Positions 1 through 36,666 of a stretch of DNA of 36,666 bases are shown in pieces. The stretch spans positions 1 through 36,666 of the IMG/VR virus record IMGVR_UViG_3300012348_000044, one strand, 5' to 3'. Within the stretch, counting starts at the first letter, position 1; each line of letters begins with the position of its first letter. Under the pieces are notes generated by a model that was not told the DNA's origin, searched no databases, and worked only from the letters and a program-made list of their open reading frames with translations. The position numbers and the translations under genes are program-made. The stretch comes from a virus.

Positions 1-55
1 GAGGTTGGCCCGGGTGAGGTCGGCCCCGGCGAGGTAGGCCCCGGCGAGGTTGGCC
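1..55. repeat. Terminal overlap: nt 1-55 are identical to nt 36612-36666 (circular-contig signature)
   Basis: Direct comparison of the two ends: gaggttggcccgggtgaggtcggccccggcgaggtaggccccggcgaggttggcc is present at both. Confidence 0.9.
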
Positions 56-174
56 CGGGCGCTTACGGCTTTTTCAAGCGCATGGCGCATTTGCAATCCT
101 GACGCAGTGTCGTCTGGAAACTCGCATTCAAACAATACAGCGTCAGTGAATCGGTGTTTGATTTGATGTTTCAT
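1..174 (-). CDS. Pentapeptide-repeat protein, N-terminal part (the gene runs off the window start and continues at the window end)
   Basis: ATG at 174-172 on the complement. Translation MKHQIKHRFTDAVLFECEFPDDTASGLQMRHALEKAVSARANLAGAYLAGADLTRANL stays open to nt 1. After removing the 55-nt terminal overlap, the frame is continuous with the minus-strand ORF that stops at 36147 (58 + 154 = 212 aa). Confidence 0.8.
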   Translation of the reverse strand, partial: MKHQIKHRFTDAVLFECEFPDDTASGLQMRHALEKAVSARANLAGAYLAGADLTRANL

Positions 175-182
175 GTTTGCTT

Positions 183-824
183 TCAAAAAGTATGCTCGTT
201 GGCGATGCGCTCAATGACCTGGCGATAGTATTCACGGCCAGCCTCGACCTTTTCGATAATCTTGGCCTCCATTGCCTTGTCGCGCTCTTGATGCAGCAGG
301 GTGACGCGCAACTCGGGCGTGATGTGGTCAATGACGTGGAGTTGGCGATCCTCGTACCCGATCAATTCCTCTGGCGTGGAGACAAGGCAATAAGCAATGG
401 CCGCGCTGTCAACATCCCAAAGCCACATATAGGCCGCAAGCTGCCATGTGTAGGTCTTGTTTTCGCCATCCTCTGCAAGCGCCGGGAACGTGGCAAGCGA
501 CCACGAGGACTTGATGTCAATTATTTTTGACCCGGTGAAGATGTCGCACTCGCCGGTGATCCATTCATTGGTCTTGCGCTCGGTGTTCTTGGTGTAGCTG
601 GTGAACAAAACCGAGTTGAGCAATTCGATGGACTGATCCTCGACCTGGATGCCCTTCTGCATGGGCTTGCTGGAGATACGCTCGTCGTACCCGTACACCG
701 CCTCTTTTGCCAGCTTGGTGATGGCGGTCTTTGCGCCGACTGACAGCGTTTCTGTTTTGGCTTTGGGCTCGGTCATCAGGTCGGCCAGCGACGATGCGCG
801 GAAAATGATTTTGTGATCAAGCAT
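183..824 (-). CDS. Recombination exonuclease, PD-(D/E)XK (YqaJ / lambda Exo-like)
   Basis: D..(D/E)xK-type motif GECDIFTGSKIIDIKSS. It lies directly downstream of the ERF gene, overlapping it by 8 nt. Start chosen at the internal ATG 824 (MLDHKIIF...) because GGAGG lies 9 nt upstream; the ORF-track start at 860 would overlap erf by 44 nt. Confidence 0.65.
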   Translation of the reverse strand: MLDHKIIFRASSLADLMTEPKAKTETLSVGAKTAITKLAKEAVYGYDERISSKPMQKGIQVEDQSIELLNSVLFTSYTKNTERKTNEWITGECDIFTGSKIIDIKSSWSLATFPALAEDGENKTYTWQLAAYMWLWDVDSAAIAYCLVSTPEELIGYEDRQLHVIDHITPELRVTLLHQERDKAMEAKIIEKVEAGREYYRQVIERIANEHTF

Positions 825-1341
825 TTGCGAGAGCCTCCACCAAAATGGACTCTTGCTCACTTGTCAGGGCAAATGTTTCGCGCAGTTTGTCGGTTGAGTA
901 TTGCCCAGACTTGATGCGCTCAATGGCTTGCGCAAATCGCGCATTTGTCAGCGTCTCCTTTTTGCGTGGCTTGCTGGCCGCATTGCCATCATCGTCTTCT
1001 GGCGCGATACCGCAGGCAGACATGAGCGAATAGCGGCGGGCATACGTCAATGCCGAGCCATAGCCTTGCGGGTCTTGCTTGGCTGCTGGAACGTGCAAAC
1101 GGCCCGCGCTGAATGTCTCGCCAGACTCATGAATGAACAGCGTTTCAACAGTTACGCCGTGCTCGCACTCATGGGTTGGCTGCATGAGCATCACGCCGTT
1201 TTCGTTGAGCGCATCAACGACAGCTTCAACGCAGGCGGCCAGGTCTGCATAGCGCGATTTGAAGTGAGGGTTGGTTGACGACTTGAGCGCAGGGCCAAAA
1301 GCCTTCTGAGCCTTGACCAAAGCTGATGCAATTTTCTGCAT
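817..1341 (-). CDS. erf: ERF-family single-strand annealing protein (recombinase)
   Basis: Motifs NPHFKSRYADL and GSALTYARRYSL are typical of the ERF family. It is the first gene of the leftward operon and is followed by an exonuclease. Confidence 0.8.
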   Translation of the reverse strand: MQKIASALVKAQKAFGPALKSSTNPHFKSRYADLAACVEAVVDALNENGVMLMQPTHECEHGVTVETLFIHESGETFSAGRLHVPAAKQDPQGYGSALTYARRYSLMSACGIAPEDDDGNAASKPRKKETLTNARFAQAIERIKSGQYSTDKLRETFALTSEQESILVEALANA

Positions 1342-1477
1342 GATCTACTTTCGGTTTGCATGGCGACTGTGCCACGGGTTTTATTGTAATCTGATTTCAA
1401 GCAATCCGCGCAAAATAATTTGCACGCCGCGCAAAAAAATCACGCTACAATGGCGCATCAAATCAACTGGGGAACAA
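1342..1477. promoter_or_regulatory. Divergent early control region (candidate leftward and rightward promoters plus operators)
   Basis: A 136-nt gap separates the divergently transcribed erf and HTH genes. Direct repeats CCGCGCAAAATAAT (1406-1419) and CCGCGCAAAAAAAT (1427-1440) are phased 21 bp apart. TACAAT occurs on the + strand at 1446-1451 and on the - strand at 1383-1388. No canonical -35 box at 17 bp could be found. Confidence 0.4.
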
Positions 1478-1825
1478 ATGACAGAGCAAGAAGTCACAAA
1501 CGAGTCAGTCAAAGCACTGCGCAAATCACTTGGCATGGGCCAGGCTGAATTTTGGGGGCCGATTGGTGTGAAGCAAGCCGCAGCCAGTGGCTACGAGAAT
1601 GAAACGGCCATCCCAAAGCCCGTGCGCATCCTGGTGGTGGCTCGCTACGTTTGCGGCATCCACATCGACGCAGACACGGCAGATGGCGTTGAAGCAACAA
1701 AGCAGCTTGGAAACGTCCAGCAAAAGAAGATCAAGGCCAAAGCCATTGCAGGCGAGGTCAAGCAAGACCTGGCAAAAGCCGCCAAATCAATTCAAACTGC
1801 GCACGACGCGCTGAGTTCATACTGA
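1478..1825 (+). CDS. Cro/XRE-like helix-turn-helix regulator
   Basis: LRKSLGMGQAEFWGPIGVKQAAASGYENE resembles an XRE-type HTH. It is the first rightward gene. ATG 1478 was chosen because the longer ORF-track version (from 1313) would cross the divergent promoter region and overlap the erf start. Confidence 0.65.
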   Translation: MTEQEVTNESVKALRKSLGMGQAEFWGPIGVKQAAASGYENETAIPKPVRILVVARYVCGIHIDADTADGVEATKQLGNVQQKKIKAKAIAGEVKQDLAKAAKSIQTAHDALSSY

Positions 1826-1835
1826 AAGGAAGATC

Positions 1836-2258
1836 ATGGCTCAAATCACTGGAGTTTTTCGCATTGGCCGGGACGCTGAAGTCCGTCACACACCGCGCGG
1901 CGATGCTGTGGCGCAATTGTCGCTGGCCTACAACTACGGCAAAAAAGGCGACGATGGCAAGCGCCCATCGCAATGGATTGACGCAGCCATCTGGGGCAAG
2001 CGTGCCGAATCGCTCGCACCTTACCTGCTTAAAGGCTCGCAGATTTACGCCGTCCTGAGTGACCCGCATATCCAGACCTATGAAGGCAAAAACGGCCAAG
2101 GCCACAAGCTGGCCGCGACCGTGCTGGAGATTGAATTGATCGCGGGCCAACGCGACCAAGCACAACCGGCACAACGCCAAGAGCGCCCAGCGGCACGACC
2201 AGCGCCAGCGCAAGAAGCCAGTGGATTTGATGACATGGACAGCGACGTGCCATTCTGA
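1836..2258 (+). CDS. ssb: Single-stranded DNA-binding protein
   Basis: OB-fold N-terminus (MAQITGVFRIGRDAEVRHTPRGDAVAQLSLA), a Pro/Gln/Ala-rich linker and an acidic tail DDMDSDVPF. AAGGAAG RBS upstream. Confidence 0.9.
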   Translation: MAQITGVFRIGRDAEVRHTPRGDAVAQLSLAYNYGKKGDDGKRPSQWIDAAIWGKRAESLAPYLLKGSQIYAVLSDPHIQTYEGKNGQGHKLAATVLEIELIAGQRDQAQPAQRQERPAARPAPAQEASGFDDMDSDVPF

Positions 2259-2372
2259 CGCTTACGGGCTGAAAGCGGATGCTGTGAGCGTGGCGTATTG
2301 CAATGCACGGGCACCGTGCCACCAACAGACGCAGCAAGTAGGCCCACCATTTTTTTAACCAAGGAGAAAAGC

Positions 2373-2714
2373 ATGAACCAAGAGCAAATCGCCCGTGTCT
2401 GCCACGAAGTTAACCGCGCTTATTGCGAATCGCTTGGAGACAACAGCCAGCCATCATGGGAAGGCGCTCCTCAGTGGCAAAAAGACAGCGCCATGCTTGG
2501 CGTGAAATTGCACACTGAGAATGATGTTGGCCCAGAGGCAAGTCATCAAAGCTGGATGGCGCAAAAAGTTGCTGAAGGTTGGATTTATGGCCCAACAAAA
2601 GACCCAGAGGCAAAGACACACCATTGCATCGTGCCATTTGATATGCTGCCACGCGAGCAACAGGCCAAGGATTTCATTTTCCGAGCCGTTGTCCATGCTT
2701 TGCGCTCTGCTTGA
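2373..2714 (+). CDS. RyR-domain (ryanodine-receptor repeat-like) protein
   Basis: SWMAQKVAEGWIYGPTKDPEAKTHHCIVPFDMLPREQQAKD matches the W..EK..GW.YG...D...K.HP.LVPY..L pattern of the RyR domain. AAGGAG lies upstream of ATG 2373. Confidence 0.65.
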   Translation: MNQEQIARVCHEVNRAYCESLGDNSQPSWEGAPQWQKDSAMLGVKLHTENDVGPEASHQSWMAQKVAEGWIYGPTKDPEAKTHHCIVPFDMLPREQQAKDFIFRAVVHALRSA

Positions 2715-3238
2715 TGGCTAAATTTACCATCCAGCGCACCGGTCAAGCCATCCCCGCAGAACTGGAGGGCGCACGCGCCCTTCTTTTCAAATGCTTTGAA
2801 GGCCGCACCGACGAAGACACATCCGCATGGAAAAAGCTGTGGTCACGGCTTATCAAGTCCGAGCCCGGCCAGATCGTCAACATGGAGGCATCGTTTCCGC
2901 GAAACGTTCGTTTTCATCGAAAGTTCTTTGCTCTGCTTAACCTCGGCTTTGAGGCATGGACACCGGCCACCAAATTCAAAGGCATGGACATTGCCAAAGA
3001 CTTTGATCAGTTTAGATCAGATGTGACCATCCTTGCGGGTTTCTACGACCAAGCCTTCACCCTTGATGGCACGATGACGCTGAAAGCCAAATCGATCAGC
3101 TTTGGCCGAATGGAAGAACCCGAGTTTGAGAAACTCTATTCCGCCGTGGTGAACGTCCTGCTTGCGCGAGTGCTGACCACGTACGAAAACCGCGAGCAAT
3201 TGGATGCCGTGGTTGACCAGATACTTGGCATGGCATGA
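2714..3238 (+). CDS. Hypothetical nin-region-like protein (DUF1367-like)
   Basis: RNVRFHRKFFALLNLGF resembles DUF1367 as I remember it. TGATG junction with the upstream gene. The family assignment is from memory only. Confidence 0.45.
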   Translation: MAKFTIQRTGQAIPAELEGARALLFKCFEGRTDEDTSAWKKLWSRLIKSEPGQIVNMEASFPRNVRFHRKFFALLNLGFEAWTPATKFKGMDIAKDFDQFRSDVTILAGFYDQAFTLDGTMTLKAKSISFGRMEEPEFEKLYSAVVNVLLARVLTTYENREQLDAVVDQILGMA

Positions 3239-3558
3239 GATTCCCAAAACACAACTACATCCGAAGCAAAACGCTGCTGCGCAACGCCCGCGAGATATCC
3301 TGCCAGCATTGCGGCGCTGACGATGGGACTGTGGTGGCCGCGCACACCAACCACGGCGGCGGCAAGGGTCGCGGCATCAAGGCATCAGACAACCTGATCG
3401 CATCGCTTTGCTTTCGATGCCATCATGCGCTTGACCAAGGCGCATCAATGACCAAAGACGAGCGCCAGACAATGTGGCAGGCGGCGCACGCCAAGACAGT
3501 GGAAAAGCTGACAAAGCTGGGATTGTGGCCCGATGATGTGCCACTGCCTGAAAATTAG
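3235..3558 (+). CDS. YbcO/DUF1364-like putative Zn-dependent nuclease
   Basis: CQHCG...TVVAAHTN..GGKGRGIKASD..IASLC..CHH..D resembles the Cys/His pattern of lambdoid YbcO. ATGA overlap with the upstream gene. Confidence 0.5.
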   Translation: MRFPKHNYIRSKTLLRNAREISCQHCGADDGTVVAAHTNHGGGKGRGIKASDNLIASLCFRCHHALDQGASMTKDERQTMWQAAHAKTVEKLTKLGLWPDDVPLPEN

Positions 3559-3593
3559 GATACAATAAAATTCCCTAAAACAATTCAGCGAAA

Positions 3594-4106
3594 GTGAAGA
3601 TGAGAGTTCAAAAAGTACACACGATAGAAAGCCTCATGGCGCGGACTATTGAGATCGGCGACTGCATGGAGTGGACTGGATACTGCCAAAACGAAACACC
3701 ATTCGTGGTGTCTGGTGGAGTCAAGTGGATGGTGCGCAGATTGGTTAAGCATTTGCAAGGCAGGCCGCTTTACCCTGGCGTCCACTTTGGCACGCATTGT
3801 GGAAATCCAAAGTGCGTAAATCCTGACCACATCGCAGAGCGCAGAAAAGCCGATCACATGAGGCTCATGGCAAAAAACGTCGATCACAATCACCCGATTC
3901 GCATTGCCAAGCTGCAAAAAGCAGCAGAGTCTCGCCGAGTGCTGTCTGATGAGAGCTTGGCAATGATTCGCAGCGATGACCGCAATGACCGCATTGTTGC
4001 CGCTGATTTTGGTGTCAGCAAAAGCCTCATCAATAAAATTAGGCAGAACAAATCACGAAAGATTGTCAACGCCTCAGTCAATCCATTTGCAGGTCTGATG
4101 CGATGA
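3594..4106 (+). CDS. HNH_3-like zinc-loop domain plus C-terminal HTH protein (homing-endonuclease-like or regulator)
   Basis: CMEWTGYC...CGNPKCVNPDHI motif, and C-terminal ADFGVSKSLINKIRQNK (HTH-like). GTG at 3594; an alternative ATG lies at 3600. Confidence 0.5.
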   Translation: MKMRVQKVHTIESLMARTIEIGDCMEWTGYCQNETPFVVSGGVKWMVRRLVKHLQGRPLYPGVHFGTHCGNPKCVNPDHIAERRKADHMRLMAKNVDHNHPIRIAKLQKAAESRRVLSDESLAMIRSDDRNDRIVAADFGVSKSLINKIRQNKSRKIVNASVNPFAGLMR

Positions 4107-4567
4107 GAAAGCGCAGTTCATACCGACCAAAAGGAATCCGGCCAGACGCTGTGTCTTATGTCCTTTCAAGCATCAAGCCGCTGTCCAAAGTTGATGACGC
4201 ATTGACCACGCTCAAGATCAAAAACCATGGCGCGATGGCCGCAGTCACGCAAGGCTACGCTTGCCGCGATGATATGGACTTGCTGATAGCGGCCATGAAC
4301 ATTGCAGAAGCGTTTTGCATCAAAGGCATCGGCTCTGACTACTACCCACAAATCCGGGCAGGCCAAGACGCATTGCAGGCACTTTGCAAGCGCGGCGTCG
4401 ATCGAGGTGATCGCTTTATTTTCAAATCCGAAGAAATGCAGGCATTGAACCTGGCGATGGAAGTTCACGATGCACAGCTTGAAGTTGCGACAGTTAAGCA
4501 GCTTGAGCAAGCCGTGGAGTTTGTCCGCGAAACCATCCGACTTGGCAAAGCCAGGAAAATCATATGA
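4103..4567 (+). CDS. Hypothetical protein
   Basis: 154-aa ORF with ATGA overlaps at both ends. No motif recognised. Confidence 0.55.
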   Translation: MRKRSSYRPKGIRPDAVSYVLSSIKPLSKVDDALTTLKIKNHGAMAAVTQGYACRDDMDLLIAAMNIAEAFCIKGIGSDYYPQIRAGQDALQALCKRGVDRGDRFIFKSEEMQALNLAMEVHDAQLEVATVKQLEQAVEFVRETIRLGKARKII

Positions 4568-4671
4568 CTTGGCCATTCCCGCCACCTACCGGCCCAACCC
4601 CGTGGACTGCCAAGCAAAAGGCAGAATACGAACGCGCCAAGCGAAACCAACAAGGCGAGGCTCCTTGGTGA
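4564..4671 (+). CDS. Hypothetical small protein (35 aa, Pro-rich)
   Basis: MTWPFPPPTGPTPWTAKQKAEYERAKRNQQGEAPW. ATGA overlap upstream and GTGA overlap downstream. It is too short for the ORF track and is supported only by its coupling geometry. Confidence 0.3.
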   Translation: MTWPFPPPTGPTPWTAKQKAEYERAKRNQQGEAPW

Positions 4672-4871
4672 AGCCGATATGCGCTCTTTGTGGCCGACCA
4701 ACCAGGCCATTTGTCATGATTGGCCGCGAGGCTATTGGCCCGAAGTGCGCAGCCAAATCTGGCCTGATGCCAAAGTCCTGGCGCAATAGTCGGCTGAAAT
4801 TTATCAAGCCGATCAAAGCTGAAAGCAATGGCCAAGGCGATTTATTCGCCGACCAAAAGGAAATCACATGA
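4668..4871 (+). CDS. Hypothetical small Cys-containing protein
   Basis: GTG start in a GTGA overlap. (M)KPICALCGRPTRPFVMIGREAIGPKCAAK. Ends in an ATGA overlap with the MTase-like gene. Confidence 0.35.
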   Translation: MKPICALCGRPTRPFVMIGREAIGPKCAAKSGLMPKSWRNSRLKFIKPIKAESNGQGDLFADQKEIT

Positions 4872-5443
4872 AAAAATTTAAAGTATTGATTGGTTGTGAA
4901 TATTCAGGCGCAGTGCGCGATGAATTCATCAAGCGAGGCCATGATGCAATGAGTTGCGATTTGTTGGATACAGACGCGCCGGGGCCTCATTACAAAGGCA
5001 GTGTTTTTGATGTCATTGACTATCCTTGGGATATTGCGATCTTTCACCCGCCATGCACACATCTGTCGGTGTCAGGCGCTCGTCACTTTGCGGCAAAGTG
5101 GACGGATGGAAGGCAAGCCGAAGCCGTGGCGTTTTTTATGAAATTGCAGCGGGCATCAGCACACATCCCAAAAACGGCCACCGAAAACCCAGTTTGCATT
5201 ATGTCAAGCCTTTGGCGCAAGCCAGACCAAGTAATCCAGCCGTGGCAATATGGGCACGGAGAAACCAAGGCAACTTGTCTGTGGTTAAAAGGCTTGCCAT
5301 TGCTGACACCGACCAACATCGTTGAAGGCCGAGAGCAGCGCATCCATTTGATGCCACCAAGCGAAGACCGCTGGAAGTTGCGCAGCACGACTTATGCTGG
5401 GATTGCAGCCGCAATGGCCGAGCAGTGGGGTAATCATGATTGA
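4868..5443 (+). CDS. Miniature DNA cytosine-C5 methyltransferase-like protein
   Basis: FHPPCTHLSVSG resembles motif IV (PC.. catalytic Cys). TENP resembles motif VI (ENV). N-terminal VLIGCEYSGAVRDEF sits at the motif I position. At only 191 aa it has no room for a TRD or motifs IX-X. Confidence 0.6.
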   Translation: MKKFKVLIGCEYSGAVRDEFIKRGHDAMSCDLLDTDAPGPHYKGSVFDVIDYPWDIAIFHPPCTHLSVSGARHFAAKWTDGRQAEAVAFFMKLQRASAHIPKTATENPVCIMSSLWRKPDQVIQPWQYGHGETKATCLWLKGLPLLTPTNIVEGREQRIHLMPPSEDRWKLRSTTYAGIAAAMAEQWGNHD

Positions 5444-5923: not shown

Positions 5924-8119
5924 GTGGAATATGAAGATTTTGTGGCGGCCAAGCGCCGAAAAGAAGTGGCGACAGGCCATCAACCTGGCGACCTGAACGA
6001 GCATTTGTTCGACTTTCAGCACGCCATTGTTAGCTGGGCCGTTCGTCGTGGCCGCGCAGCCATTTTTGCCGATACAGGACTTGGCAAGACGCTGATGCAG
6101 CTTTCATGGGCCGATGAGGTGGCAAGCCACACTGGCGGGTCTGTGCTGGTGCTGGCCCCGCTTGCCGTGTCTGAGCAGACAATTGAGCAAGGATCCACGT
6201 TTGGCATTGAGGTCAAGCGCGTGCCTCATTCTGGCGTGATTGATTCGCCCGGCGTCTGGATCACAAACTACGAGCGCATGGATGCCATCGACTTTACCGA
6301 GTTGCATGGCCTGGTGCTGGATGAATCATCCATCCTGAAGGCTCACGATGGCAAAACGCGCCAGCACATCATCACATCGGCTCAAGGCGTGCCTTATCGC
6401 TTGAGTTGCACGGCCACGCCATCACCCAATGATTTTGAGGAGCTTGGCAACCAGTGCGAGTTTTTGGGCGTCATGACTCGCACCGAGATGCTGGCGACTT
6501 ATTTTGTCAACGACACCGGAGACACTGGAACATGGCGACTCAAGGGATGGGGTGCGTCAAAGTTCTGGGAATGGATGGGATCATGGGCCGTGGTGCTGCG
6601 CAATCCATCTGATTTGGGATTTGATGGCGCAAGGTATGAGTTGCCGCCACTTGAGTATTTTGAGCACGTTATTCAGACTGAGGCCATTGAAGGCGATTTG
6701 TTCTCGCGCCCAGCCATGACCATGACCGAGCGAAGAAAGGCCCAGCGAGATAGCATTGAGGCGCGATGCCGCGCATTGGCGGATGTTGTCAATGCCGATA
6801 AATCAGAGCCTTGGATTATTTGGTGTCACTTGAATGATGAAGCTGAATTGCTCAAGCAGCTGATAGACGATTCTGTGAATGTTCAGGGGTCTGACTCGCC
6901 AGAATCAAAAGCAAAAAACTTGCTCTCATTTGCGCATGGTGACATTCGAGTCATGATTAGCAAGGCAAAAATAGCAGGGTATGGCCTCAATTGGCAGCAC
7001 TGCGCGCGCATGGCATTTGTCGGCCTAGACGACTCATTTGAAAAGTTCTACCAGGCCGTTCGCCGGTGCTACCGATTCGGACAAAAGCGCAATGTGCAGG
7101 TGCATATGTTCACCGCAGAAAACGAAGGCCAGATTCTGGCAAACCTTAAACGCAAAGAAGTGCAACATCACGAGATGAGCGCAAACATGATCGAACACAT
7201 GAAAGACATTATGAACAAAGAACTCGCAGGCCAAGAAAACATCGTGGACGAATACCGCGAAGACACATTCAACGGCGATGGCTTTACCGTCCACTTGGGT
7301 GACTGCGTGAAGTGGTCACGCCGCATGGCCGACAACAGCGTGGACTATTCTGTTTTCTCGCCGCCATTCGCCGATCTGTTTGTTTACTCAAACAGCGATC
7401 ACGACATGGGCAACTGCAAGAACGATCAAGAATTTGTCGAGCAGTTGAAGTTCCTGATCTCTGAGCTTTTCCGAGTTTTGAAGCCTGGCCGCAATGTCTC
7501 ATTCCACTGCATGAACTTGCCGACAACAAAGATGCGCCAAGGCTTTATCGGCCTGCGTGATTTCCGTGGAGATTTGATCCGCGCGTTCCAAGATGCTGGA
7601 TTCATCTATCACTCTGAGGTCTGCATCTGGAAAGATCCAGTTGTCGCCATGCAGCGCACAAAGGCACTTGGTCTGCTGCACAAGACAATCCGCGAAAACA
7701 GCACCATGAGCCGCATGGGCCTGCCTGATTACGTCGTGACCATGCGAAAGCCTGGAGAGATTGAGGAGCGCGTCACGCACGGCGATGATTTGCCCGTCCA
7801 TCTGTGGCAAAAGTACGCCAGCCCAATCTGGGATGACATCGACCAAGGCCGCACGCTGAACAAAATGCCAGCGCGTGACGAGAACGACGAGAAGCATATG
7901 TGCCCGCTTCAGCTTGATGTGATTGAGCGCTGCATCCACCTGTGGACAAACAAAGGCGATGTTGTTTTCAGCCCATTCACCGGCATTGGCTCTGAAGGCT
8001 ATACAGCCATCAAGATGGGCCGGAAGTTTGTTGGCACTGAACTCAAGCCGCAATACTTTGAGCTGGCCTGTCTCAACATCACTGACGCATCAAAAGAGCA
8101 GCAAGGATTGTTTGCTTGA
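5924..8119 (+). CDS. SNF2-family ATPase/helicase fused to a beta-class N6A/N4C DNA methyltransferase
   Basis: N-terminal half: ADTGLGKT (motif I), VLDESS (II), CTATPSPN (III), GYGLNWQ (V), QAVRRCYRFGQKRNV (VI). C-terminal half: SPPFADLFVY (motif IV, (D/N/S)PP(Y/F)), then CPLQLDVIERCIHLWTNKGDVVFSPFTGIGSEG (motif I, FxGxG). GTG start with a GGAGAG RBS. Confidence 0.85.
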   Translation: MEYEDFVAAKRRKEVATGHQPGDLNEHLFDFQHAIVSWAVRRGRAAIFADTGLGKTLMQLSWADEVASHTGGSVLVLAPLAVSEQTIEQGSTFGIEVKRVPHSGVIDSPGVWITNYERMDAIDFTELHGLVLDESSILKAHDGKTRQHIITSAQGVPYRLSCTATPSPNDFEELGNQCEFLGVMTRTEMLATYFVNDTGDTGTWRLKGWGASKFWEWMGSWAVVLRNPSDLGFDGARYELPPLEYFEHVIQTEAIEGDLFSRPAMTMTERRKAQRDSIEARCRALADVVNADKSEPWIIWCHLNDEAELLKQLIDDSVNVQGSDSPESKAKNLLSFAHGDIRVMISKAKIAGYGLNWQHCARMAFVGLDDSFEKFYQAVRRCYRFGQKRNVQVHMFTAENEGQILANLKRKEVQHHEMSANMIEHMKDIMNKELAGQENIVDEYREDTFNGDGFTVHLGDCVKWSRRMADNSVDYSVFSPPFADLFVYSNSDHDMGNCKNDQEFVEQLKFLISELFRVLKPGRNVSFHCMNLPTTKMRQGFIGLRDFRGDLIRAFQDAGFIYHSEVCIWKDPVVAMQRTKALGLLHKTIRENSTMSRMGLPDYVVTMRKPGEIEERVTHGDDLPVHLWQKYASPIWDDIDQGRTLNKMPARDENDEKHMCPLQLDVIERCIHLWTNKGDVVFSPFTGIGSEGYTAIKMGRKFVGTELKPQYFELACLNITDASKEQQGLFA

Positions 8120-33359: not shown

Positions 33360-33784
33360 TGATCGAATCGCTTTTGAGCATCGGCGGGAAGCTGATCGAC
33401 AAACTGATTCCCGACCCAGCGGCAAAGGCCCAGGCTCAGCTTGACCTTGCCAAGATGGCGCAAGATGGCGAGCTTGCCAAAATGGCAGACGAAACGCGCC
33501 GCCGTGAGCTTGAATTGGTGGACGGACAGCAAGCCCACAAAGAGCAGCAAGAGACAATCCGCTCAGGGGACAACGCCCAAGACGAATACGTGAGGCACAC
33601 GCGCCCAATGATGGCCCGCCAGTCTTGGTATGCAGGCGCGGCTTTCATCTTTGGCTTTGAAGTGGCCAAGGTCATGGGGCATGGTGAAGGCGCATCGTTT
33701 GAGATTGCCATGACCGTGCTGGCCCCGGCGCTGGCTTATATGGGTTTTCGCACCTTTGACAAGTTCGCCAAATGGAAAAAGTGA
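33356..33784 (+). CDS. Holin-like protein (GTA-type 3TM holin family resemblance)
   Basis: N-terminal LIDKLIPDPAAKAQAQLDL motif and C-terminal hydrophobic segments WYAGAAFIFGFEVAKVM and FEIAMTVLAPALAYMGF. Confidence 0.55.
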   Translation: MMIESLLSIGGKLIDKLIPDPAAKAQAQLDLAKMAQDGELAKMADETRRRELELVDGQQAHKEQQETIRSGDNAQDEYVRHTRPMMARQSWYAGAAFIFGFEVAKVMGHGEGASFEIAMTVLAPALAYMGFRTFDKFAKWKK

Positions 33785-34401
33785 CGCATATTACAAAGAT
33801 TAAGAGAGGAACCGTTCGCCAAGATGGAATGGTATTTTGGTCAATGGTAAAAGGTCGAGAGTATTGGACGACGCCATCACAATTTGCAAAAGGCGTGGCA
33901 GCCATAAAAGCCAATAGACAAGCAAGAGCGCATCTTAATGTTGAAAAAAACCGAGCAAAAACACGTGCTTGGTATGCAAGAAATTCTCAAAAAGCTTGCG
34001 ACTCAACAAAAAAATGGCGTGAAAATAATCCAGAAAAAGTTAAAGAGCAAAAAACAAATTGGATTAAAAAACCAGAAAACAGGATTCGCACACTTATTGG
34101 TGCGGCAAAACAAAGAGCAAAAAAAAGTGGAATTGAATTTTCAATTACCATGGATGATCTTTTGCCGCTTCCTATTGAGTGTCCAGTCCTTGGGATAAAA
34201 ATTAATTACAACGGCAACAGTGATCAACGCGGTTTTGTAGATGACTCTCCTTCAATTGACAGGATTGATTCATCTGCTGGATACGTAAAAGGAAATGTAA
34301 AAATAATTTGCTGGAGAGCAAATCGAATTAAAAGCGACTCAACAATTGAAGAAATGCAAGCAATTTTGAGTTTTATGAAAAGAGAGCTTAAATGCAAGTG
34401 A
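33772..34401 (+). CDS. HNH / His-Me-finger homing-endonuclease-like protein (AT-rich insertion)
   Basis: CPVLGIKINY....DDSPSIDRIDSSAGYVKGNVKIICWRANRIKSD matches the pattern of small phage HNH endonucleases. Lys-rich N-terminal half. One 60-nt line (34021-34080) has 15/60 G+C. Confidence 0.55.
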   Translation: MEKVTHITKIKRGTVRQDGMVFWSMVKGREYWTTPSQFAKGVAAIKANRQARAHLNVEKNRAKTRAWYARNSQKACDSTKKWRENNPEKVKEQKTNWIKKPENRIRTLIGAAKQRAKKSGIEFSITMDDLLPLPIECPVLGIKINYNGNSDQRGFVDDSPSIDRIDSSAGYVKGNVKIICWRANRIKSDSTIEEMQAILSFMKRELKCK

Positions 34402-34826
34402 CTCCACATTTTTCGCTTAATGAACTTACGGCCAGCGAGACAGCGGCAAGGCGTGGATGGGACAACACCCCAGGCCCGTCAGAGCTTGCAAACCTAACGC
34501 GCCTTGCAGACCTTTTGGAGCAAGTCCGCGCATTGCTTGGCAAGCCTGTTTTGGTGAACAGCGCATACCGATCAAAGCAGGTAAACGACGCAGTTGGCAG
34601 CAAGGACACCAGCCAGCACCGCATCGGGTGCGCGGCTGATATCCGAGTGCCTGGAATGACACCTGATCAGGTGGTGCGCAAAATCATTGCAAGCGGCATA
34701 GCCTTTGACCAGTGTATCCGAGAGTTTGACGCATGGACGCATATCAGTGTGCCCAACACAATCGACACGCCTGCCCGAAGGCAAGCGCTGATCATCGACA
34801 AGCAGGGCGCGCGCCCATTCGGTTAA
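34392..34826 (+). CDS. Endolysin, peptidase M15A (L-alanyl-D-glutamate / D-Ala-D-Ala peptidase-type)
   Basis: HFSLNELT, LVNSAYRSKQVNDAVGSKDTSQHRIGCAADI, FDQCIREFDAWTHISV (His/Asp/His zinc ligands of Peptidase_M15_3). Confidence 0.85.
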   Translation: MQVTPHFSLNELTASETAARRGWDNTPGPSELANLTRLADLLEQVRALLGKPVLVNSAYRSKQVNDAVGSKDTSQHRIGCAADIRVPGMTPDQVVRKIIASGIAFDQCIREFDAWTHISVPNTIDTPARRQALIIDKQGARPFG

Positions 34827-35269
34827 ACGAAGCCTCGCAAGTTTGGCGGCTTGTAATCCTTGCCCTTACCAATCTTGCCGCCTTCAAGAATCACAGCCAC
34901 GCCGTTTTCCAGCTTTGAATCGTTGGAATCAATGACCGCCTGATCGGCTGAGTCCTTGTCAAACCCGGCGAAGAACGCCACGCCGTTTCCAGTGACTTCA
35001 ATGTCGCACAAAGCATCGAGCGCATCGACGCGCAAGTGAATTGGGATATAGACCATCTGCTCGCCGAGCTTGAGCTTTGACGCGAACCATTCAAGGTCAA
35101 GGCGCGTCCGATCAAGCAGCTTTGCATAGCCCTCGCTATCAGTGCGCAGGCACGCCAGCAACTCGCAAAATTCCTCAATCTGACAGCCAATGGCCGTGTT
35201 CAGGTTTTCTGGTGTTTTGGTTTTTCCGCATGCCTCAAGCCATGCCGCTGTTCTTTGGTAATTCGTCAT
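34823..35269 (-). CDS. MazG-like all-alpha NTP pyrophosphohydrolase
   Basis: EExxE (QIEEFCEL) and DALxD (VDALDALCDIEV) metal-binding helices. C-terminal DSNDSKL....GKIGKGKDYKPPNL is typical of phage MazG-like proteins. Confidence 0.55.
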   Translation of the reverse strand: MTNYQRTAAWLEACGKTKTPENLNTAIGCQIEEFCELLACLRTDSEGYAKLLDRTRLDLEWFASKLKLGEQMVYIPIHLRVDALDALCDIEVTGNGVAFFAGFDKDSADQAVIDSNDSKLENGVAVILEGGKIGKGKDYKPPNLRGFV

Positions 35270-36138
35270 TTCATTTCCCCGCCAAGTGTTAATATAACCG
35301 CATTGATTGCATCCCCAAGTGTGGCCGTCATGATCGCCACATCGGCGTCAAAAGCATCGCAATCGTGCTCGCCTTGACTGACGGTCAGGATGTTGATTTT
35401 CTTGAGCCGCATCGTGTCAGTCAGCGTAAATTCAATCTGATCGCCATGAGCAAGTGCCAGCGATGTCGGCAGCTTGCCCTCTGAAACATGATTGCGAACA
35501 TCCTTGCAGTCCAGATTGTGATGCGTGAATTTGACCTTTGACACATCTTCTCCAACTGACTCAAGAACGCAATCGCGGCCAATGGACAAACCGCACGGCA
35601 TTTCGTCATGCTTGCCAAGCAACCATTGAGTCATTGCCACTTGTGGCGATGTGACCGTGTTCACCAAGTACAACTTCAGGCTTGGAATGGCTTGCATCAG
35701 CGCAGAAACAAAGTCATCTGCTTTGGACTGGCTGATTGTGTCAATCGCCAAAATACCATCATCACGGAGCCATCCGAGGACCGCTGTTTGTTTAGGGAAC
35801 GCTTGAGGCAGCAAAGCAGTCCGAGCATCATCCATGATTTCTCGGCGCTCTTTTTTGCCTGGCTTGCGCCCTTGCGATTGTTCAATCTCGTAAACCATAT
35901 CGTCAACAGCATCGCGCAAAACTTTGCTTGGGACTGACTTGGTTTCGATCATCAGCTTGACGATGCGCTCACCGTTGACGATTTCAACCATTGGCCCGTG
36001 ATTGATGCCGCGAGGCTCGACCCATCCGACTGACTTTTCTTGCAGATCGTTGCACGGAACAAACCGCGCAAAGTCGCCAAAGTTTGGCAAAAGGTATGAT
36101 TCGATTTCGTATCGGTAAATTGTGGCTGACTTAAACAT
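35266..36138 (-). CDS. rdgC: Recombination-associated protein RdgC
   Basis: MFKSATIYR...F.PC..LQEKSVGWVEP....G.....V.GERIVKLMIETK.VP..V........IE..QGRKPGKKERREI.D.....LLPQAFPK is the RdgC pattern. AAGGAG lies 4 nt upstream of ATG 36138. Confidence 0.8.
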   Translation of the reverse strand: MFKSATIYRYEIESYLLPNFGDFARFVPCNDLQEKSVGWVEPRGINHGPMVEIVNGERIVKLMIETKSVPSKVLRDAVDDMVYEIEQSQGRKPGKKERREIMDDARTALLPQAFPKQTAVLGWLRDDGILAIDTISQSKADDFVSALMQAIPSLKLYLVNTVTSPQVAMTQWLLGKHDEMPCGLSIGRDCVLESVGEDVSKVKFTHHNLDCKDVRNHVSEGKLPTSLALAHGDQIEFTLTDTMRLKKINILTVSQGEHDCDAFDADVAIMTATLGDAINAVILTLGGEMK

Positions 36139-36146
36139 GATGCTCC

Positions 36147-36666
36147 TTATTTCCAGATTGATGCATGGCACTTGATCAACTCAAGAGCCGCCAGATATTC
36201 TTTTGAGTGATCGTTGTCTTGATGCTCATTTGACAGCTTTTCTGTGAATTCATCAACAGTTCCAAAAAAGCATCCTGCGCGAAGCATGATGCCCTTGTCG
36301 GTGTTGTAGCTTGTGAAGTATGCGCAGCGCGATCCTATCGGCCCAATCATAAAAATTGGACGCTTGCCGATCAATTTGGCCCCGGCGAGGTCGGCCCCGG
36401 CGAGGTTGGCCCGGGTGATGTCGGCCCCGGCGAGGTAGGCCCCGGCGAGGTTGGCCCCGGTGAGGTCGGCCCCGGCGAGGTAGGCCCCGGCGAGGTTGGC
36501 CCCGTAGAGGTTGGCCCCGTAGAGGTTGGCCCCGTCGAGGTTGGCCCCGTCGAGGTTGGCCCCGGCGAGGTAGGCCCCGGCGAGGTTGGCCCCGGTGAGG
36601 TCGGCCCCGTAGAGGTTGGCCCGGGTGAGGTCGGCCCCGGCGAGGTAGGCCCCGGCGAGGTTGGCC
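36147..36666 (-). CDS. Pentapeptide-repeat protein, repeat array plus C-terminal domain (5' end continues at nt 174-1 through the circular junction)
   Basis: The minus-strand frame is open from the window end. It reads ...YGADLTGANLAGAYLAGANLDGANLDGANLYGANLYGANLAGAYLAGADLTGANLAGAYLAGADITRANLAGADLAGAKL, then IGKRPIFMIGPIGSRCAYFTSYNTDKGIMLRAGCFFGTVDEFTEKLSNEHQDNDHSKEYLAALELIKCHASIWK, then a stop (TAA, complement of 36147-36149). Confidence 0.85.
   Translation of the reverse strand, partial: ANLAGAYLAGADLTRANLYGADLTGANLAGAYLAGANLDGANLDGANLYGANLYGANLAGAYLAGADLTGANLAGAYLAGADITRANLAGADLAGAKLIGKRPIFMIGPIGSRCAYFTSYNTDKGIMLRAGCFFGTVDEFTEKLSNEHQDNDHSKEYLAALELIKCHASIWK
36376..36666. repeat. 15-nt tandem repeat array (consensus gaggtNggccccggc), about 19 units in this part of the window
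   Basis: Directly visible. The units differ at only 1-3 positions. The array is the DNA image of the pentapeptide repeats on the minus strand. Confidence 0.95.

Follow-up and report, generated by a model that had tools for sequence, protein, structure and literature searches.

A phage pentapeptide-repeat protein encoded among erf, exo and rdgC carries a C-terminal head domain shared with YdcK-type solenoid proteins

Our subject is a gene for a pentapeptide-repeat protein (PRP) in the viral genome held as IMG/VR record IMGVR_UViG_3300012348_000044. We refer to the whole stretch of DNA analysed, positions 1 to 36,666 of that record, as the window. The gene is on the minus strand and is divided between the two ends of the window. 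Bases 1-55 are identical to bases 36612-36666. This is the sole suffix-prefix overlap, and the 55-mer occurs as an exact copy only at the two ends. Hence, the window represents an assembly of circular type, 36,611 bp in length, with the cut falling within the PRP gene. Counting the overlap at 36612-36666 once, the open reading frame (ORF) formed by 174-1 and 36611-36147 is in frame, spans 639 nt and encodes 212 amino acids. The joined gene had been proposed in a preliminary description, made from the sequence alone, and is borne out by the exact overlap and the in-frame ORF. That description also raised the prospect of an assembly chimera. At the level of architecture the gene is not chimeric, since two further IMG/VR contigs (L008 and L011) contain intact, internal orthologues. 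In both, the N-terminal domain, repeats and C-terminal domain are present, and the gene is between exo (92% identical) and rdgC. In another contig, L007 (IMGVR_UViG_3300020044_003831), the PRP gene is between erf and rdgC, with no match to exo, and there is an in-frame stop in the C-terminal domain. The stop (LIK*HGEN, within approximately 6001-6225) leaves a protein, P0024, called at 151 amino acids; either the gene is a pseudogene or the stop is a sequencing error.

The protein has three parts. Codons 1-58 are at positions 1-174 (minus strand), where 174-67 encode an N-terminal cap (amino acids 1-36) and 66-1 the first repeat units. The rest of the pentapeptide array is at 36363-36611 (minus strand) and, with bases 1-66, makes up approximately 20-21 units of 15 nt (amino acids 37-141). 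Positions 36147-36362 (minus strand) encode a non-repeat C-terminal domain, amino acids 142-212, and the stop codon. We call this conserved, family-defining module the head, and the array the rod. Translation, and a table of the units, gave approximately 20 A(N/D/Y)LXX units in uninterrupted succession. Tandem Repeats Finder (TRF) reported a period of 15, with 19.4 copies and 87% matches. The Pfam family PF00805 was matched with E=2.3e-32 and 110.6 bits, against a cut-off of 20.2, and the contiguous units exceed the eight taken to define membership of the PRP superfamily. The three-part plan of the preliminary description therefore stands, with small changes in length: 36 rather than about 40 residues at the N-terminus, and 72 rather than 74 at the C-terminus.

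A full-length AlphaFold model, predicted from 77 homologues, has a predicted local distance difference test score (pLDDT) of 91.5. In the model, amino acids 1-38 form a beta-hairpin (strands 2-7 and 13-18) and a helix (28-38). Amino acids 39-140 form a regular solenoid, with a short strand every five residues, and amino acids 141-212 form four strands and two helices. When the full model was compared with the PDB using Foldseek, only pentapeptide-repeat proteins were returned, with synthetic and cyanobacterial ones ranking first. The probability was 1.0 for the solved PRPs 2j8k, 2o6w and 3n90; MfpA, QnrB1 and AlbG were matched at E values of 1e-4 to 1e-2. We conclude that the window protein is predicted to be a beta-helix of pentapeptide repeats, right-handed and quadrilateral, with five coils. 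The structure prediction, the fold matches and the Pfam profile all agree with the beta-helix first suggested.

The repeat number is less secure than the fold. The contig break is in the array, which also contains an internal repeat that is exact over 52 nt, as well as copies of the terminal 55-mer with one mismatch. Similarly, 27 of 82 related loci begin inside the array of the same gene (L005, L006, L014-L016, L021, L026 and L029 among them). For these reasons, the count of 20 repeats is no better than short-read assembly. The arrays of this family are, thus, a frequent, and systematic, breakpoint of short-read phage assemblies.

Outside of the array, the head matches the PHROG families phrog_20532 (E=1.4e-13) and phrog_7964 (E=3.2e-10). 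Modelled alone, it has a pLDDT of 88.6 and, again, four strands and two helices. Foldseek found no fold neighbour of the head in the PDB (best E approximately 1). No sequence relative in the PDB was found by a hidden Markov model (HMM) search at E<=10, and no Pfam or NCBIfam family was matched. As modelled, the head fold is absent from solved structures, and the C-terminal domain is novel. A profile search with the head returned 2,363 clusters (50% identity) at E<=1e-3. Among 147 newly listed cluster representatives, 120 have at least four pentapeptide units; the rest have 0-3 units or are fragments. The alignment of PRP-type heads (75 amino acids) has 19 invariant, and 10 nearly invariant, columns. 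A search with the full protein gave 5,370 matches at E<=1e-5, though generic PRPs may account for many of them. The best 120 of these are 131-314 amino acids in length and nearly all span the whole query (a few cover 36-87%). In this set, the N- and C-terminal domains are kept and the repeat number varies. The related loci are mostly from Betaproteobacteria (Comamonas, Variovorax, Polynucleobacter, Ideonella and Azoarcus), and cultured examples of the full architecture include gp3 of EBPR siphovirus 1 and a protein of Pseudomonas phage Amjad_SA. We conclude that the head is what stays constant in, and defines, a very large and uncharacterised phage family, and that the rod is variable. Novelty lies in the architecture, the head domain and the behaviour in evolution, and not in the PRP fold.

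In full-text searches of the literature, neither phage PRPs nor the family defined by the head emerged as the subject of any functional study. Likewise, the preliminary description knew of no characterised phage PRP in the role it proposed, and our searches found none. A review of PRPs attributes 1.4% of PRP sequences to viruses, and the word 'phage' is nowhere in its text (PMC8145042). In a Listeria P100-like phage, one PRP gene has been placed in the early long-terminal-repeat region, without a function being assigned (PMC12282133). The main text of the EVADES anti-defence catalogue, which covers 268 proteins, contains neither 'pentapeptide' nor 'solenoid'.

The same head is also found on a different solenoid. 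In Paenibacillus phage Pd_22F, it follows a repeat region that is not made of pentapeptides (tblastn E=7e-8). Structure matches in BFVD, with TMq of 0.75-0.82, are phage proteins labelled pentapeptide, hexapeptide-transferase-like, YdcK-like or 'polymer-forming cytoskeletal'. Cultured-phage records with relatives of the Pd_22F type number 97, and IMG/VR loci at least 589. Their hosts include Streptococcus, Bacteroides, Liberibacter, Bacillus, Vibrio, Xanthomonas, Mannheimia, Mycobacterium and Achromobacter. The homologues from Sfi19, Boilgate and phiXacJX1 pass the 30-bit cut-off of PF18836 (YdcK solenoid); the Mannheimia homologue, at 25.8 bits, is below it. The YdcK-type relatives examined match the same PHROGs as the window protein (7964 and 20532). 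Aligned with hhalign, the PRP-type and YdcK-type heads are homologous with 99.1% probability (E=1.7e-18). The two architectures have a common plan, with a family-specific N-terminal domain, a very regular tandem-repeat solenoid and the shared head. We conclude that one head domain has been fused to either pentapeptide or YdcK/hexapeptide-type solenoids. Since the window protein has pentapeptides, rather than PF18836, we file it as a sister architecture and not as phrog_7964 proper. In all, this is a very common, unstudied family in phages of Proteobacteria, Firmicutes, Bacteroidetes and Actinobacteria. In some large Bacillus phages, with genomes of approximately 150-160 kb, the homologue is near a genome end: Bp8p-C/T (~149.2 of 151.4 kb), phiAGATE (12.9 kb) and Bobb (14.8 kb). 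We take these phages to be SPO1-like; in SPO1-like phages, that end region contains the terminal-repeat genes for host takeover.

We turn now to the array itself. In the window, all repeat alanines are encoded by GCC, all leucines by CTC (with one ATC) and all glycines by GGG. Third codon positions of the array have a GC content (GC3) of 0.98, whereas the two domains that flank it in the gene have values of 0.44 and 0.49. Overall, array GC content is 0.76, within a 53% GC genome. The units differ only at unit positions 1, 7, 8 and 10, which are first or second codon positions of three outward-facing residues. There are no third-position differences, and every difference between units is non-synonymous. 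Relatives behave similarly. In 73 arrays, with 1,386 internal units, differences within arrays number 1129 at codon position 1, 544 at position 2 and 228 at position 3. At four-fold-degenerate third positions of these units, alanine codons vary in 13 and leucine codons in 23. Of the 73 arrays, 44 lack any third-position variation. Each array uses one alanine and one leucine codon, and the sets differ by lineage (GCC/CTC, GCG/CTG, GCG/CTT, GCA/CTG and GCC/TTG). Because lineages use different codon pairs, identity within an array reflects homogenisation of each array, rather than a shared DNA motif. A functional DNA motif, either Chi-like or a G-quadruplex (GGGG per 15 nt), was rejected on the same ground.

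Rod length is similarly fluid. By two methods, it ranges from approximately 2 to 39 units: 4-30 in the best protein matches, up to 39 in the loci and 2-3 in some cluster representatives. Contigs with 900-nt flanks that are 99.9-100% identical differ in unit number (20/19, 29/20/31/30/32, 19/20 and 12/13). The vocabulary of units is lineage-specific, even among close relatives of the window. The same codon-position signature is present in the hexapeptide arrays of the cultured phages Sfi19, phiRM10 and Javan64 and, hence, is not an artefact of short reads. We conclude that the arrays undergo concerted evolution. We infer that frequent slippage, or unequal recombination, homogenises the units and that selection preserves diversity at exposed residues. 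Identity of codons within arrays, together with amino-acid diversity at exposed sites, marks concerted evolution plus diversifying pressure with unusual clarity. A diversity-generating retroelement, considered on account of the AAC/TAC/GAC pattern, was rejected. The changes are not adenine-specific changes from a single template, and all units vary; no search for a reverse transcriptase was made in the window.

The PRP gene is the third of five in a leftward operon, with the order erf-exo-PRP-rdgC-mazG. The first gene, at 817-1341 (minus strand), encodes an Erf-family single-strand annealing protein (PF04404, E=7.7e-24; phrog_2324, E=4.9e-44). Directly upstream of the PRP gene, at 183-824 (minus strand), is the exonuclease gene (phrog_5715, E=1.8e-70). 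Directly downstream is rdgC, at 35266-36138 (minus strand; PF04381, E=3.4e-72). The last gene, at 34823-35269 (minus strand), encodes a MazG-like nucleotide pyrophosphohydrolase (phrog_671, E=3.3e-19; phrog_2144, E=2e-7) for which no Pfam or NCBIfam match was found. It overlaps rdgC by 4 nt. The exo stop codon (185-183) and the PRP start codon (ATG, 174) are separated by 8 nt. The PRP stop codon (36149-36147) and the rdgC start codon (ATG, 36138) are also 8 nt apart, and this gap contains GGAG. Both gaps, and the gene order, are as first described; the reading of the sequence and the Pfam and PHROG matches confirm them. On the 3' side of the leftward operon, and convergent with mazG, positions 33772-34826 (plus strand) contain an endonuclease VII/HNH-like ORF (phrog_3322, E=3.8e-34) and an ORF of 144 amino acids. 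A rightward early operon, at 1475-5443 (plus strand), encodes a helix-turn-helix (HTH) regulator, an SSB with an acidic tail, a RyR-domain-like protein, a NinB/Orf recombination mediator, two HNH endonucleases and one DNA methyltransferase. The RyR-domain-like gene is 81.6% identical, at the DNA level, in MW202867. Hence, the window phage carries Erf, exonuclease, RdgC, SSB and NinB.

The exact operon, erf-exo-PRP-rdgC-mazG, is confined to the closest relatives. More widely, 29 of 82 PRP-type loci have Erf, RecT, YqaJ, RdgC or DUF2800 within four ORFs, and others of the 82 adjoin genes for ParB, primase-polymerase, DNA polymerase or terminase. In Pfam-annotated contigs, repressor regions are immediately upstream of the PRP gene, and RecT-YqaJ or a Sak4-like AAA_24 gene is downstream of it. 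We used tblastn to look for annealases, exonucleases, Gam-like proteins, RdgC and NinB; at least one such recombination-type gene was within +-6 kb at 45 of 80 PRP-type, and 38 of 80 YdcK-type, loci, and these counts are lower bounds. Clustering of neighbours found no fixed partner gene.

Individual phages illustrate the pattern. In Mannheimia phage vB_MhS_587AP2 (L113, 2373-6286), RecT and an exonuclease are followed by the homologue and, a few genes on, by a MazG-like pyrophosphatase. This is the order of the window, assembled from non-homologous parts. In Streptococcus thermophilus phage Sfi19, the order is cro, orf229 (the homologue), Gp157 (annotated as Mu Gam-like), Sak4, helicase and SSB. 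Ruminococcus phage phiRM10 has gp34 (the homologue), gp35, Mu Gam-like, Rad52, NinB and NinG. In the spring-water podovirus MW202674, the homologue is divergent from erf-SSB-nuclease. Synteny with recombination genes, which the preliminary description had named as a check, recurs: even in very distant phages, the gene is in, or beside, an early module for recombination or replication. Its recurrent place beside annealase and exonuclease genes makes it a candidate for a missing component, or protector, of phage recombination. Two features of the Sfi19 region (L112, 2075-4642) can be added. First, orf229 is approximately 1.3 kb downstream of orf183, annotated as the anti-CRISPR AcrIIA6, so that this early region contains a known counter-defence gene. 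Second, orf129, annotated inside orf229, is probably spurious and an alternative frame of the repeats.

Such linkage could mean that the protein assists, or scaffolds, the machinery with which the phage itself recombines or replicates DNA. Here, the head or cap would bind a phage protein (annealase, exonuclease, SSB, RdgC or primase), or DNA ends, and the rod would be a spacer that fixes a distance, possibly in a tail-to-tail dimer. Conservation of the cap and head, with variable rod length, fits this idea, as does the location of the gene in recombination and replication modules of unrelated phages. The 8-nt spacing to exo and rdgC also resembles translational coupling. However, the neighbouring recombination proteins come from non-homologous families (Erf, RecT, Sak4 and Rad52; YqaJ, phrog_5715 and DUF2800), so that there is no constant phage partner. 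Moreover, about half of the loci lack a recombination gene within 6 kb, by the lower-bound counts above. A functional ruler should not differ by one unit between otherwise identical phages, and diversification of exposed residues suits conflict better than housekeeping. Overall, we consider a scaffold role unlikely.

The preliminary description proposed instead that the pentapeptide beta-helix mimics B-form DNA, either like MfpA and Qnr or, functionally, like lambda Gam, T7 gp5.9, P22 Abc2 and Ocr. The protein would plug RecBCD, gyrase or a DNA-sensing defence and, thereby, protect recombination intermediates. The location of the gene, directly after erf and exo, is suggestive. Note that abc1 and abc2 of P22, which act against RecBCD, follow erf, and that gam of lambda adjoins bet and exo. 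The predicted PRP fold has a DNA-like diameter, linkage to annealase and exonuclease genes recurs in distant phages, and no Gam homologue was found among 15 early ORFs scanned. Some members of the family are acidic, including those of Javan64 (net -13) and phiXacJX1 (net -12). Several observations stand against mimicry. Over 20 units, the window array has 7 Asp, compared with 3 Arg and 1 Lys, giving a net charge of -3; by sequence, the protein is 10.4% acidic, with a pI of 5.8. Across the family, charge per unit ranges from -0.49 to +0.43 (mean -0.08) and is not conserved. AhQnr, MfpA and EfsQnr are described as negatively charged, and AhQnr is a nine-coil dimer (PMC3089455); our contrast in charge rests on those published descriptions. 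Furthermore, Qnr function depends on surface loops (PMC3089455, PMC8145042). In the window protein there are five coils, loops are absent and the C-terminus is of another kind.

Other evidence points the same way. Scores against NCBIfam models are far below cut-off: 36.7 against 240 bits for Qnr, 36.4 against 360 for MfpA and 40.3 against 450 for QnrA. Labelling such genes as Qnr-like resistance genes is unjustified. The rod varies from approximately 2 to 39 units and is replaced, on the same head, by a YdcK/hexapeptide-type solenoid (per PF18836). Gam, gp5.9, Ocr and Abc2 gave no Pfam, PHROG or NCBIfam match to the window protein, and none is in the Foldseek PDB lists for the full model or the head. 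The homologues in Sfi19 and phiRM10 are one or two genes upstream of Gam-like genes and, thus, do not simply fill the Gam slot. What remains of the proposed Gam-position gene is its recurrent linkage to recombination genes; its equivalence to Gam is undercut by those neighbours. The mechanism itself fares worse, given the near-neutral array, the unconserved charge, the variable length and the sub-threshold Qnr and MfpA models. By its sequence, the surface appears not to be DNA-like. We conclude that DNA mimicry is disfavoured, and regard it as distinctly unlikely.

A further possibility is that prophages carry the protein for superinfection exclusion, or as a decoy or defence protein; it would then act on other phages, rather than in the lytic growth of the phage that encodes it. 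Prophage-like contigs from Comamonas, Variovorax, Azoarcus and further Betaproteobacteria do carry the gene. At some loci it is near repressor or immunity regions, and the protein surface evolves fast. Some NLR-like defence proteins of bacteria also use pentapeptide repeats as their sensor domains (bioRxiv 10.1101/2022.07.19.500537). Yet, in the window, the gene is apparently co-transcribed with lytic early recombination genes. It is also found in virulent phages: Sfi19, the Bacillus phages that we take to be SPO1-like and a Xanthomonas phage encoding an RNA polymerase. PADLOC found no match, and membership of a defence system was rejected for that reason. An exclusion or decoy role is, we believe, very improbable.

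The best explanation, which we favour tentatively, is that the gene makes a binding protein, expressed early and probably without enzymatic activity, whose rod presents a fast-evolving surface aimed at the host machinery for DNA repair and recombination or for defence. In this scheme, the cap would be a small N-terminal beta-hairpin plus helix, the rod a rigid five-coil pentapeptide beta-helix and the head a 72-amino acid alpha/beta domain. The head may anchor the protein to a partner, or oligomerise it. The rod would offer a long, rapidly evolving surface that blocks, or occupies, a host repair or recombination protein or an anti-phage defence protein. Blocking the host protein would favour the phage's own Erf/exonuclease pathway. 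The rod would act as an evolvable steric or binding surface, and not as a charge-for-charge copy of DNA.

Some points weigh against such a binding protein. No enzyme, ligand or partner can be named. The head residues R153, H188 and C172 are invariant in the PRP branch, but the YdcK branch does not retain all of them; such a pattern suits a binding role more than a catalytic one, yet it also makes any single target less plausible. Differences in unit number among near-identical metagenomic contigs may be, in part, assembly artefacts. Diversity at exposed sites could reflect selection for folding or solubility, or against slippage, without any arms race. Finally, the +-6 kb counts of recombination genes are without a matched control, and such genes are, in any case, often present in the early regions of temperate phages.

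A broader proposal is that solenoid-head proteins as a whole, pentapeptide and YdcK types alike, are widespread early inhibitors made by phages, with a binding surface diversified by repeat slippage. This we consider doubtful. If true, tandem repeats in DNA would continually reshuffle and resize a beta-solenoid, with selection keeping differences only at exposed residues. Phages would, hence, have a built-in means to track changing targets in host repair or defence. This would be a viral-side repeat counterpart of variable receptors of the leucine-rich repeat (LRR) type. Cultured relatives, in the Sfi19-type phages of S. thermophilus and Pseudomonas phage Amjad_SA, make the family directly testable.

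How, then, does the window protein compare with known systems? With MfpA, Qnr, AlbG and McbG it shares a beta-helix, right-handed and quadrilateral, of A(D/N)LXX units. However, those proteins have 8-9 coils, rather than five, and surface loops are present in Gram-negative Qnr, whereas the window repeats are uninterrupted. The known proteins end in a short dimerising helix, or a beta-alpha-beta motif, that forms a tail-to-tail dimer; the window protein instead has its 72-residue domain. Against HMMs for topoisomerase-protecting PRP families, it scores 36-40 bits, compared with cut-offs of 240-500. Also unlike that group, its array is near-neutral and its units are DNA-level tandem repeats that turn over. 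The likeness to lambda Gam, P22 Abc1/Abc2, T7 gp5.9 and Ocr is one of setting: a small early protein beside annealase and exonuclease genes, plausibly serving the phage recombination pathway. The window protein has no similarity to these in sequence or fold and is not strongly acidic. Moreover, solenoid-head homologues occur alongside Gam-like/Gp157 genes, at a distance of one or two genes, rather than in their stead. A third group comprises phage PRPs that share only the N-terminal cap, in Ralstonia phage RSK1, Bordetella phage vB_BaM-IFTN6 and MW202557. These have the same cap motif, followed by a regular pentapeptide array, but their C-terminal domains differ from that of the window. The C-terminus of the MW202557 protein ('KRP...GC...W') was considered as a homologue of the head and rejected, with an hhalign probability of 0.35%. 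A fourth group comprises proteins of PHROGs 7964, 5070 and 20532, such as orf229 of Sfi19, gp43 of Mannheimia phage 587AP2 and the 'hexapeptide repeat transferase-like' protein of phiAGATE. Their C-terminal domain is homologous to that of the window protein, and they share its plan, its early recombination or replication context and its array codon-position signature. They differ in having a YdcK/hexapeptide-type solenoid and another N-terminal domain.

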